Assembly (NCBI GenBank): GCA_003243195.1
Contig: QFQI01000010.1
Coordinates: 13,196-77,195 of the forward strand
From: Sphingomonas taxi
Lineage (GTDB): Bacteria > Pseudomonadota > Alphaproteobacteria > Sphingomonadales > Sphingomonadaceae
DNA: 64,000 nt
Reading direction: 5' to 3'
The notes under the pieces are model-generated. The model was given only the letters and a program-made list of their open reading frames with translations. It made no database searches and had not been told where the DNA came from. Shown here piece after piece: positions 60,733 through 64,000 of the stretch (its first letter is position 1; every line of letters begins with the position of its first letter). A program made the position numbers and the translations under genes.

Positions 60733-61817
60733 TGAAGCTGGTCGTCCTGGGCCTGTCGCTCAGCTCCAGTTGGGGCAACGGCCATGCCACCACCTTCCGC
60801 GCGCTGCTGCGCGCGTTCGCGGCGCGCGGGCATGAAGTGCTGTTCCTCGAACGCGACATGCCCTGGTATGCCGATCACCGCGACGAACCGGCGCCCGATT
60901 ACTGCCGCCTCGACCTGTACGACAGCCTCGACGCGCTGGAAGGCTGGCGCACGGAGATCGAGCAGGCCGATGCGGTGATGGTCGGCTCCTATGTGCCCGA
61001 CGGCATCGAGGTGGGACGGCTGGTGCAGCGATGGGCGCGCGGCGTCACCAGCTTCTACGACATCGACACCCCGGTGACGCTCGCCCGCCTCGTGCGCGGG
61101 ACGTGCGACTATGTCTCGGCGGCGGTGATCCCCGGCTATGACATCTATTTCTCGTTCACCGGCGGTCCCACGCTGCGGCTGATCGAGGAGCGTTATGGCG
61201 CGCCGGCCGCGCGTGCGCTTTATTGCTCGGTGGACGCCGACCGCTATCGCCCGACCGGCGCGGCGGCGCGCTGGGACCTGTCGTATCTCGGCACCTACAG
61301 CGACGATCGCCAGCCGACGCTGGAACGGCTGCTGATCGAGCCGGCGCGCCGCCACCCCGACCGGCGTTTCGTCGTCGCCGGCCCGCAATATCCCGCCACG
61401 ATGGACTGGCCCGGCAATGTCGAGCGGATCGAGCATCTCGCGCCGGCCGACCATGCCGATTTCTACTCCGCGAGCCGCGCGACGCTGAACGTCACGCGTG
61501 CGGACATGATCGCGGCCGGCTGGTCGCCATCGGTGCGGCTGTTCGAGGCGACCGCCTGCGGCACGCCGATCGTGTCGGATCGCTGGCCGGGCATCGAGGA
61601 GCTGCTGACCCCCGGCAGCGAGATCCTGCTCGCCGACAGCGGCGCGGACGTGGACGCGGCACTCGCCCGCGACGACCTCGCCACGATCGGCGCGGCGGGG
61701 CGCGCGCGCGTGCTGGCCGAGCACACCGCGCGTCACCGTGCCGCGGAGCTGGAGTCGCACCTGCGCGAAGCGGCCGCGGAACGCGCGGCGCCGATCGGCG
61801 CACGGGTCGTCATCTGA
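60729..61817 (+). CDS. CgeB-like glycosyltransferase, paralogue 3
   Basis: GTG 60729 or ATG 60732, overlapping the upstream stop. MKLVVLGLSLSSSWGNGHATTFRAL and RLFEATACGTPIVSDRW. Confidence 0.65.
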   Translation: MMKLVVLGLSLSSSWGNGHATTFRALLRAFAARGHEVLFLERDMPWYADHRDEPAPDYCRLDLYDSLDALEGWRTEIEQADAVMVGSYVPDGIEVGRLVQRWARGVTSFYDIDTPVTLARLVRGTCDYVSAAVIPGYDIYFSFTGGPTLRLIEERYGAPAARALYCSVDADRYRPTGAAARWDLSYLGTYSDDRQPTLERLLIEPARRHPDRRFVVAGPQYPATMDWPGNVERIEHLAPADHADFYSASRATLNVTRADMIAAGWSPSVRLFEATACGTPIVSDRWPGIEELLTPGSEILLADSGADVDAALARDDLATIGAAGRARVLAEHTARHRAAELESHLREAAAERAAPIGARVVI

Positions 61818-62008
61818 GCGGCGCTTCGCCGCAAGGTGTCGCCGCCTAGCCCCGGGCGACACGGTCGCGACGGCGGCGCCCGGGATCACCAAGGCTTTCG
61901 CGACGGGCCGACCCGCCGCCAGCATTAGGACGATGCGCTCGGCCAGCGTCGCGGTGACATGGAGTAAGGAAGGCGGCGGCGAGCCCATCTGCCTGCGCTC
62001 CTACAATG

Positions 62009-62035
62009 AAAAAGGCCAGCGCCGTAGCGCTGGCC
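62009..62035 (-). terminator. Rho-independent terminator oriented on the minus strand
   Basis: Minus strand: GGCCAGCGC-TACG-GCGCTGGCC followed by TTTTT. The plus strand has only TTATCT after the stem. Confidence 0.75.
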
Positions 62036-62160
62036 TTATCTGGTGCGTACTGACGCTTGTTAACCGCCAGACCGCGATCTCTGAGCCTTCAGAATAGCTA
62101 TGCTCATGCGCGGGTCAAGGCATTTTCCGTATCGCGTCCGAAACGGCGCTGATCGTAAGG
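62009..62160 (-). ncRNA. Candidate tracrRNA (5' end uncertain), divergent from cas9
   Basis: There is no minus-strand ORF here. Minus-strand read: ..GGAAAAUGCCUUGACCCGCGCAUGAGCAUAGCUAU UCUGA-AGGC-UCAGA (hairpin 62080-62093), a second stem UCUGG..CCAGA (62039-62071), then the terminator hairpin plus U5. This layout matches anti-repeat, nexus and 3' hairpins. Confidence 0.4.
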
Positions 62161-62309
62161 CGCTGGCCAGTGGTCCACGCGTGCCGGGTCAACGGCCTAG
62201 CAGGCGATGCGCGCCGGATGGCGATTGACGCCCTCTCCCCGTTCGCCATCATCGCACCGGAATGGCCGCAACTCGGCTTGGCGAACGGTGCGTGGGGAGA
62301 AATGACCGC

Positions 62310-64000
62310 ATGGCGGGAGGCGACGTGACGAACTGGCGTCTGGGTATCGACTTGGGGACGAACTCGCTCGGCTGGGCGGCGCTGCGGCTTGGCGCTGACG
62401 GCCGGCCGGCCGGCATCATTGCGGCGGGCTCCCGTATCTTCTCGGACGGACGCGATCCGAAATCGGGTGCGTCACTGGCGGTGGACCGCCGCGAGGCACG
62501 CGCGATGCGGCGGCGGCGCGACCGCTTCCAGCAGCGCCAGCGCGCGTTGATGAAATATCTGGTCGCCGACGGCCTGTTCCCCGCCGAGCGCGAGGAACGG
62601 CGCGGGCTGGAAACGCTCGATCCGTTCATGCTGCGCGCAACCGCGCTGGACGAGGCGCTGCCGCTCCATCACCTCGGGCGCGCGATCTGGCACCTCAACC
62701 AGCGGCGCGGCTTCAGGTCGAACCGCAAGACCGATCGGCCCGACGACGACAGCGGCAAGATCAAGGTCGCGGTCGGGCGACTGCGCGACGCGATGGATGC
62801 GGCGGGCGCGCGCACGTTCGGCGAGTGGCTCCACCAGCGCCGTCAGCCGAGCGAGGACCATCCCGACGGCCTGCCCGTCCGCACCCGGCTGCGCGCCGAG
62901 CCGGGCGACAATGCCAAGGGCACCGGCTATGATTTCTATCCCGATCGCGCATTGCTGGAGGATGAGTTCGACGCGATCTGGTCCGCACAGGCCGAACATC
63001 ATCCCGACGTGCTGACCCCGGAGGTGCACGATCGCCTGTACGAGATCGTCTTCCATCAGCGCCCGCTGAAGACGCCGCAGGTCGGCACCTGCACCTTCGG
63101 CAGCGGCGAGCCACGATTGCCCAAGGCGCACCCGCTGTTCCAGCGTCGCCGGCTGCTGGAGGAACTCAATGCGCTGAGGATCGTGCGCGCCGGGCAGGTC
63201 GCCGAGCGGCTGACCCCCGAGCAGCGCGACCTCCTGCTGCTGAAGCTGAAGAGCAAGGGCAAGGTCAGCTTCGAGAGCCTGCGCAAGGTGCTGAAGCTCG
63301 ACCCCGACGCGCGCTTCAACAAGGAGAGCGAGAACCGCACCGAGTTGAAGGGCGACGAGGTGGCGGCGGCGATGCTGACGAAGACGCGGCTCGGCAACCG
63401 CTGGGAACATCTGTCGCCGGACGAGCAGTGGGAGGTCATCGAGCGGCTGGAAAGCGCCGAAAGCGACGAACAGGTCGAGGCGTTCCGGGCATGGGTGGCG
63501 ACGCGGTTCGATCTCAGCGGCGAGCAGGCCGTGGCGATATCGGCGGCGCGTCTGCCGCAGGGCCATGGACGCTTCGGCGAGACCGCCACGCGCGGGCTGA
63601 TCGACGCGCTGACGCATGATCGCGACCCTGACGGCCGCGTGATCGTCTACAGCGAGGCGGTGGCGCGGCTGGGCTATCACCACAGCGACTTCCGCACCGA
63701 CCAGACTTACGACGAACTGCCTCCCTACCCCGAGATCCTCGAACGCCACCTCATGCCCGGCAGCGGCGATCCGGCGGAAAAGGATATCTTCAAGCGGCTG
63801 GGCCGGCTCACCAACCCGACCGTCCATATCGGGCTGAACCAGTTGCGACGCACCGTCAACCGCCTGATCGCGCACCATGGCCGCCCCGCCGAGATCGCGA
63901 TCGAGCTGGCGCGCGAGCTGAAGCTGACCGAGGACGAGAAGAAGGAGCTTGGCCGCCGCAACCGCCAGAACCGCGAGGAGGCCGAGCGGCGATCGCGCGC
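62310..64000 (+). CDS. cas9: CRISPR-associated endonuclease Cas9, N-terminal ~563 aa (type II, probably II-C); continues beyond the window
   Basis: Frame open from the stop at 62226 to 64000. ATG 62310 follows a GGGGAGA RBS. MAGGDVTNWRLGIDLGTNSLGWAAL (RuvC-I, Asp14), Arg-rich bridge helix DRREARAMRRRRDRFQQRQRAL, FHQRPLKTPQVGTCTF, LTNPTVHIGLNQLRRTVNRLI, and EIAIELAREL (RuvC-II). Confidence 0.9.
   Translation, partial: MAGGDVTNWRLGIDLGTNSLGWAALRLGADGRPAGIIAAGSRIFSDGRDPKSGASLAVDRREARAMRRRRDRFQQRQRALMKYLVADGLFPAEREERRGLETLDPFMLRATALDEALPLHHLGRAIWHLNQRRGFRSNRKTDRPDDDSGKIKVAVGRLRDAMDAAGARTFGEWLHQRRQPSEDHPDGLPVRTRLRAEPGDNAKGTGYDFYPDRALLEDEFDAIWSAQAEHHPDVLTPEVHDRLYEIVFHQRPLKTPQVGTCTFGSGEPRLPKAHPLFQRRRLLEELNALRIVRAGQVAERLTPEQRDLLLLKLKSKGKVSFESLRKVLKLDPDARFNKESENRTELKGDEVAAAMLTKTRLGNRWEHLSPDEQWEVIERLESAESDEQVEAFRAWVATRFDLSGEQAVAISAARLPQGHGRFGETATRGLIDALTHDRDPDGRVIVYSEAVARLGYHHSDFRTDQTYDELPPYPEILERHLMPGSGDPAEKDIFKRLGRLTNPTVHIGLNQLRRTVNRLIAHHGRPAEIAIELARELKLTEDEKKELGRRNRQNREEAERRSR

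Follow-up and report, generated by a model that had tools for sequence, protein, structure and literature searches.

The minus strand of the window (the whole 64-kb stretch of DNA analysed here, C25:13196-77195 in a 3.3-Mb host genome of 28 contigs) very probably carries at 62086..62009 the gene for the tracrRNA that belongs to a type II-C CRISPR-Cas9 system. The predicted RNA, encoded on the strand opposite to cas9, would start 224 nt 5' of the start codon of that gene, and its sequence has the features by which a tracrRNA is recognised: a place next to cas9 in a type II locus, an anti-repeat, and a scaffold in which a nexus is followed by a terminator (Table 1). A minus-strand tracrRNA gene, divergent from cas9 and ending at the terminator at 62009-62035, had been proposed in the original prediction, and our data support that call, while the internal anatomy has to be redrawn. 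The anti-repeat, the nexus, the terminator, their conservation and the implied direction of the array all follow from sequence and covariation, and the RNA is an ordinary, hitherto undescribed example of an RNA family that is already known and has been tested.

Table 1 Features of the tracrRNA locus, with repeat-copy promoters of related loci (window coordinates unless another locus is named)
Feature	Position	Strand	Basis or remark
-35 box CTTGACC (TTGACC = 62118-62113)	62113..62119	-	promoter scan
-10 box TATTCT	62091..62096	-	promoter scan; relatives have a TA..T-type box at this offset
Predicted tracrRNA transcript, ~78 nt	62009..62086	-	5' end predicted from the promoter, 3' end from the terminator
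Anti-repeat	62059..62085	-	26 pairs with crRNA repeat positions 1-26 (GUUGCCGCUGGACCGCGAUCUCUGAG)
Nexus hairpin GCGU-CAGU-ACGC, 4 bp	62045..62056	-	folds; linker AA on the 5' side, ACCAGAUAA on the 3' side
Intrinsic terminator	62009..62037	-	stem 62037-62027 / 62022-62012, GC core 62035-62027 / 62022-62014
cas9, 5' part	62310..64000	+	whole gene 1093 aa, to C25:78783 beyond the window
Repeat-copy promoters	L069:4596-4640, L015:5715-5775, L029:5680-5790, L033:5759-5825, L066:367-432	-	

The gene lies in the 492-bp spacer between the stop of a glycosyltransferase gene at 61817 and the cas9 ATG at 62310, which is directly preceded by GGGGAGAA. The length originally given for this spacer was correct, and so was the statement that it holds no credible ORF, since the coding signature seen in the genes on either side is missing from its ORFs of 42-119 aa (GC3 of 0.58-0.78 and GC2 of 0.58-0.68 in the spacer ORFs, compared with 0.88 and 0.46-0.53 in the two flanking genes). 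The spacer had also been described as richer in AT than its surroundings, which holds for its central ~200 bp (G+C of 0.59 at 62000-62199 versus ~0.70 on either side) but not for the spacer as a whole. The minus-strand terminator, announced as a 9-bp GC stem plus U5 at 62009-62035, was found exactly as claimed, with GGCCAGCGC (62035-62027), a UACG loop, GCGCUGGCC (62022-62014) and U5 (62013-62009). It is the sole terminator-like site returned by a pattern scan of 61700-62500, where it extends over 62037..62012 with 11 pairs, two A-U pairs included, and it serves a minus-strand transcript only, because on the plus strand the hairpin precedes ATCTGG. A 156-nt minus-strand RNA folds better than its shuffled versions (z = -3.15, with none of 200 shuffles as good).

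Two further elements were seen in this spacer. A GC-rich 8-bp hairpin (GTGTCGCC / GGCGACAC) at 61836-61862 on the plus strand begins 19 nt past the glycosyltransferase stop codon and has no U-tract, and a promoter-like TTGACG-N16-CATCAT at 62225-62252 on the plus strand, 58 nt 5' of the cas9 start, is a candidate cas9 promoter.

The Cas9 protein matches TIGR01865 at 570 bits, and its profile matches include HNH, RuvC_III and Cas9 alpha-helical lobe domains. On the 3' side of cas9 follow cas1 (NMENI type, TIGR03639, 224 bits), cas2 (TIGR01573) and then the CRISPR array, and we assign the system to type II-C because a fourth cas gene is absent from this cas9-cas1-cas2 locus. The array starts at C25:80146, 76 bp past cas2, and spans C25:80146-82687, up to the contig end, with 39 identical 36-nt repeats (plus-strand ACTATAGACCCTCAGAGATCGCGGTCCAGCGGCAAC) and spacers of 29-32 nt. 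It is carried on at C24:21-321 by four more repeat-spacer units (five repeats, the first of them common with the end of C25), which brings the total to at least 43 repeats (39 + 4), all identical. The split between the two contigs falls at two near-identical spacers in the array. These spacers (in crRNA sense, CGAGGACATCACGGTGCGCGTCAACTCGCT and CGAGGACATCACCGTCCGCGTCAACTCGCT) have 2 differences in 30 positions (C25:82557-82699, C24:1-285), and each is followed by a spacer with the same first 12 bases, which are all that C25 keeps of it.

The anti-repeat was found through an exact 16-nt match to the repeat at window positions 62070-62085, the only strong match at the cas locus outside the arrays, where the minus strand of the window shares the sense of the plus-strand repeat. 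Read on the array minus strand, the repeat is GUUGCCGCUGGACCGCGAUCUCUGAGGGUCUAUAGU; a start with GUUG is the usual orientation of type II-C repeats. As the tracrRNA pairs with this minus-strand repeat, transcription of the array is predicted to run towards cas2, against the direction of the cas operon. The anti-repeat:repeat duplex was calculated at -52 kcal/mol (RNAduplex, cofold), and its irregularities are U62063, bulged after the fourth pair, and G.U wobbles at 62062, 62068 and 62069.

No second tracrRNA or anti-repeat was found elsewhere in the genome, where other repeat-like matches reach at most 13 nt, except for one at C21:500584-500610, which is unfit as an anti-repeat because it has the repeat's own sense and is not accompanied by a tracrRNA scaffold. 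Scanning 61500-62600 against Rfam (E up to 10) returned no tracrRNA family and only chance-level, terminator-driven matches (Leu/Thr leaders, istR); the Rfam tracrRNA model covers other lineages.

At the 5' end, the promoter TTGACC-N16-TATTCT has 9 of 12 matches, with two sites in the scanned region against 0.0 expected, and when 47 related loci are aligned on the anti-repeat, most have CTTGAC at a fixed distance from it. From these promoter boxes, we infer that transcription would start at ~62086 +/- 3, at the first base of the anti-repeat, whereas the start had originally been expected between 62100 and 62300. That expectation belonged to a longer RNA with its anti-repeat at 62135-62094, an AGGC-loop hairpin as the nexus and the next stem-loop as a 3' hairpin, an anatomy that we now consider highly unlikely. 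It shares the real terminator, and an RNA of 62132-62009, if transcribed, would allow weak pairing of 62121-62101 with the true anti-repeat; a few relatives have an obvious copy of the repeat in the equivalent upstream stretch, so that a long isoform is conceivable there. In the window, however, 62135-62094 reaches no more than -15 to -21 kcal/mol when paired with the repeat (two orientations), compared with -52 kcal/mol for 62085-62059, and its likeness to the repeat is no better than random, being equalled by 529 of 2000 genome windows. The same stretch holds the conserved -35 and -10 boxes, the promoter scan found no other promoter-like site on the minus strand of 61700-62500, and sequence conservation in relatives sets in with the -35 box and the anti-repeat rather than further upstream.

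The true anti-repeat therefore lies ~35 bases downstream of its first placement, and the array repeat ACTATAGACCCTCAGAGATCGCGGTCCAGCGGCAAC does not resemble the expected AGAATAGCTATGCTCATGCGCGGGTCAAGGCATTTTCC. The 'unstructured stretch' ..ACGGAAAAUGCCUUGACCCGCGCAUGAGCAUAGCUAU, once counted as part of the RNA, is the promoter (CTTGAC-N16-TATTCT). The small AGGC-loop hairpin does exist in the sequence (CUGA-AGGC-UCAG, 62092-62081), but it is not the nexus, since it straddles the predicted start; the second composite stem-loop is likewise present as sequence but does not act as a 3' hairpin, the anti-repeat covering both this stretch and the AGGC hairpin. A better anti-repeat elsewhere in the locus had been named as grounds for rejection, and one was found, on which the detailed model fails; it lies, however, inside the same gene. 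In effect, the promoter had been taken for the anti-repeat: a terminator and a few hairpins sufficed for calling the gene but not for placing its anti-repeat, and the array, being outside the 64-kb window, was invisible from within it.

The anatomy of Table 1 recurs in relatives. With the N-terminal 563 aa of Cas9, we retrieved 80 related loci (44-76% identical), mostly from Sphingomonadales and other Alphaproteobacteria, the closest cas9 relatives being from Sphingomonas and other Sphingomonadales. The cas9-cas1-cas2-array layout, the repeat family and its orientation are common to most of the 80 loci, and in most of them an ungapped, wobble-tolerant scan finds the stretch most complementary to the local repeat 65-450 nt upstream of cas9 and on the other strand. 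On the 3' side of this anti-repeat follows a markedly conserved ..GUUAAC-AAG-hairpin-CACCAGAUAAGG-terminator.

Covariation was analysed in an alignment that joins, for each locus, the 28-nt repeat, a GAAA linker and the tracrRNA, and that comprises 44 distinct sequences. Among these 44 loci, 97.5% of alignment cells are paired, compared with 34-50% after a shift of the partners by 1-3 columns, and both sides have changed at 20 of 38 pairs versus 7.6 +/- 1.5 in shuffles, a number reached by none of 500 shuffles. The repeat:anti-repeat helix shows both-side changes at 13 of its 26 pairs, with 96.8% of cells paired, a value inflated for this helix because the anti-repeats of the 44 loci were first picked by their complementarity to the local repeat. 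Independent of that choice are the position beside the conserved AACAAG...CACCAGAUAAGG scaffold and the covariance model search of the 80 loci. In the terminator stem, compensatory changes occur at 6 of 10 pairs (99.1% of cells paired, 44 loci), and a nexus stem of 3-5 bp is kept in 18 of the 19 distinct variants among relatives, with GCGU/ACGC, GUGU/ACGC, GCAG/CUGC, GAAG/CUUC and GCAA/UUGC as compensatory stems.

The same alignment displays irregularities of its own. A G.U wobble at repeat position 4 and a bulged U are invariant in all 44 loci (alignment A1, columns 4/58 and 57; window 62062 and 62063), and 18 loci have a C.A mismatch at repeat position 6, where the window has a C-G pair (columns 6/55, window 62065). 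These irregularities are probably read by Cas9.

A covariance model, R1, built from the 44 related loci with the window left out, matches the window end to end at 62087..62009 (97.9 bits, E = 2e-24). It is the single strong match in the 3.3-Mb genome, the next ones, at 22 bits or less, being the repeats themselves. R1 finds one copy in 77 of the 80 related cas9 loci, and in 76 of these it is divergent from cas9 and lies 60-500 nt upstream. Scores among relatives are 40-105 bits, and the score of the window is as high as these. The sole exception among the 77 is a tracrRNA on the strand of cas9 (L025:5452-5531(+), 103 bits), which probably reflects a local inversion.

Together, these features suggest how the system would work. 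A sigma-70-type promoter (CTTGAC-N16-TATTCT, 62119-62091) would start an RNA of ~78 nt right at the anti-repeat, and its first ~27 nt (62085-62059) would base-pair with nt 1-26 of each repeat, read on the array minus strand. The remainder would form the Cas9-binding scaffold, with the linker AA, the 4-bp nexus hairpin, the linker ACCAGAUAA and one GC-rich terminator hairpin with U5. By analogy with type II biology, the crRNA:tracrRNA duplex, bound by Cas9 and possibly trimmed by RNase III, would guide cleavage of PAM-flanked DNA.

The closest described counterpart belongs to the clade IX Cas9 of Sulfitobacter donghicola (Sdo), with the repeat GUUGCGGCUGGACC...CUAUUCU and the tracrRNA ..CCGUUAACAAGCAUUCGAUUGCACCACAUUAAAACGCGGGCCACGGCCCGCGUUUU.. 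(Gasiunas et al. 2020, PMC7606464, Supplementary Data 2); with this tracrRNA, Cas9 cleaves in vitro. The window RNA is identical to the Sdo tracrRNA at 56 of 78 aligned positions. Both have an anti-repeat with one bulged nucleotide after the fourth pair, a ..GUUAAC-AAG.. junction, a short nexus hairpin ending in GCACCA, an A-rich linker and one GC-rich terminator hairpin, and both repeats start with GUUGC and end in a CUAUnnU box. The repeat and anti-repeat differ between the two systems at many positions, in a compensatory manner, and the nexus loop is UUCGAU in Sdo but CAGU in the window. The Sdo RNA has been validated biochemically, whereas the window RNA is a sequence-based prediction. Cas9 proteins 44-76% identical to the present one (N-terminal 563 aa) carry the same tracrRNA.

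The EH CRISPR-Cas9 locus is a metagenomic type II-C system whose closest relatives are Alphaproteobacteria, and the guide used in the EHCas9 study was built on the Sdo guide (PMC10281378). Compared by its published description, this locus is arranged like the present one, with the tracrRNA upstream of cas9 and an array read in the tracrRNA direction, and its authors suggest that the array is transcribed either 'from promoters in the repeats' or from its distal flank (PMC10281378). EHCas9 has 1070 aa compared with 1093 aa for the present Cas9. Its PAM is NGG(DT) (PMC10281378), and that of Sdo is NRRNTT (PMC7606464).

Arrays transcribed opposite to the cas operon are also found in Neisseria meningitidis and Campylobacter jejuni (Chylinski et al. 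2013, PMC3737331). N. meningitidis shares with the present system a minimal cas9-cas1-cas2 operon and a promoter-like element inside every repeat. In the present array, all 8 of the repeats scanned have TGGACC-N16-TATAGT in the crRNA direction (minus strand), compared with 0.2 sites expected (L089:5146-5635 = C25:80146-80635), a promoter call that is a consensus match only. The crRNAs would then probably start within each spacer, by analogy with N. meningitidis. The present repeat has a -35-like plus a -10-like box, whereas the Neisseria repeat reportedly has an extended -10 only. The tracrRNA of Neisseria is from a different sequence family (no shared model), with a longer nexus and 3' region. 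The present Cas9 matches PDB chains of the N. meningitidis group with E = 1e-54 to 1e-56; solved structures of Nme1Cas9 include 6JDQ.

For CRISPR biology the tracrRNA contributes nothing new. Its RNA family, locus layout and mode of action are already described in print, and tested, for close relatives. What is gained for annotation are the boundaries of the tracrRNA gene and the reading direction of the array, and the case also illustrates a limit of interpreting a locus of this kind when its array is out of sight. A single-guide RNA for the uncharacterised 1093-aa Sphingomonas Cas9 can now be designed by joining repeat positions 1-26 to 62085-62009. More than the tracrRNA itself, three side findings deserve attention: the repeat-copy promoters in relatives, a spacer that matches hemE, and a solitary repeat near a small-terminase-like gene.

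Among 59 related loci, 11 have a significant crRNA-sense copy of their own repeat within 160 nt upstream of the tracrRNA. In L069, the copy (31/36), in which CTGGAC has become CTTGAC, coincides exactly with the -35 and -10 boxes. Two repeat copies are present in five loci, among which L029 and L069 show mini-array spacing. We tentatively raise the idea, which we think is rather more doubtful than probable, that the tracrRNA gene in this Cas9 clade is a fossil head-to-head repeat pair, transcribed like a crRNA. Its promoter would then derive from a crRNA-sense repeat copy (CTGGAC to CTTGAC, plus the CTATnnT box of the repeat), and an inverted repeat, the present anti-repeat, would fill the 'spacer' position.

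RNA read through from upstream in the repeat-copy loci would take up a natural single-guide-like fold (z = -4.7 to -8.4) and could be a long isoform. As a parallel, the long tracrRNA form of Streptococcus pyogenes autoregulates cas9. In the window, the similarity of the promoter to the repeat is not significant (ungapped p = 0.98; gapped, 529 of 2000 random genome windows equal). The evolutionary reading may apply here too, the sense copy having decayed to two promoter boxes, and a functional long isoform probably does not apply to the window.

One 32-nt spacer of the array (C25:81238-81269) is identical at 32 of 32 positions to the host's hemE, the uroporphyrinogen decarboxylase gene, which adjoins rho (C21:457964-457995 = L091:2964-2995). 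It also matches hemE on the Sphingopyxis indica plasmid NZ_CP076395.1 at 31 of 32 positions. The 42 spacers, concatenated as one query, had no match in 50,697 phage records and one in 72,556 plasmids, which is this plasmid hemE, reached through the self-matching spacer. The 3' flank of the hemE protospacer in crRNA sense, GCCGCGGG, fits neither the NGG(DT) PAM of EHCas9 nor the NRRNTT PAM of Sdo.

The self-match could mean that the system is inactive in this strain, and the tracrRNA locus might then be a decayed, unexpressed relic (a degenerate repeat or pseudo-tracrRNA) of a silent CRISPR system, for which we see only the slimmest of chances. A spacer against the host's essential hemE would be tolerated most easily if interference were off. 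Against decay, promoter, anti-repeat, nexus and terminator are intact, and R1 scores the locus at 97.9 bits, compared with 40-105 bits in relatives. In addition, cas9, cas1 and cas2 are all full-length, and the identity of all of the at least 43 repeats suggests a recently active array. The hemE target may simply escape cutting, as its flank does not have, at positions 2-3, the NGG or NRR on which the two characterised relatives rely.

The solitary repeat at C21:500584-500610 (= L090:5584-5610) is a crRNA-sense copy, GTTGtCGCTGGACaGCGATCTCTGAGG, matching at 25 of 27 positions. It lies in an islet of 47-51% G+C between thiC and a small-terminase-like gene (phrog_4044, E = 6.5e-19, weak), inside a long predicted hairpin. 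The weak small-terminase neighbour is the only sign of a prophage here, the ten downstream genes forming no coherent phage module. The repeat is not present in 60 relatives, its segment has no DNA match in phages, and the 30 nt upstream of it, a possible 'spacer', gave only chance matches of 10-12 nt to the genome. The predicted pairing of the solitary repeat with the tracrRNA is nearly as good as that of a true repeat, and this copy may represent a relic or, like RNA anti-CRISPRs, a repeat decoy.
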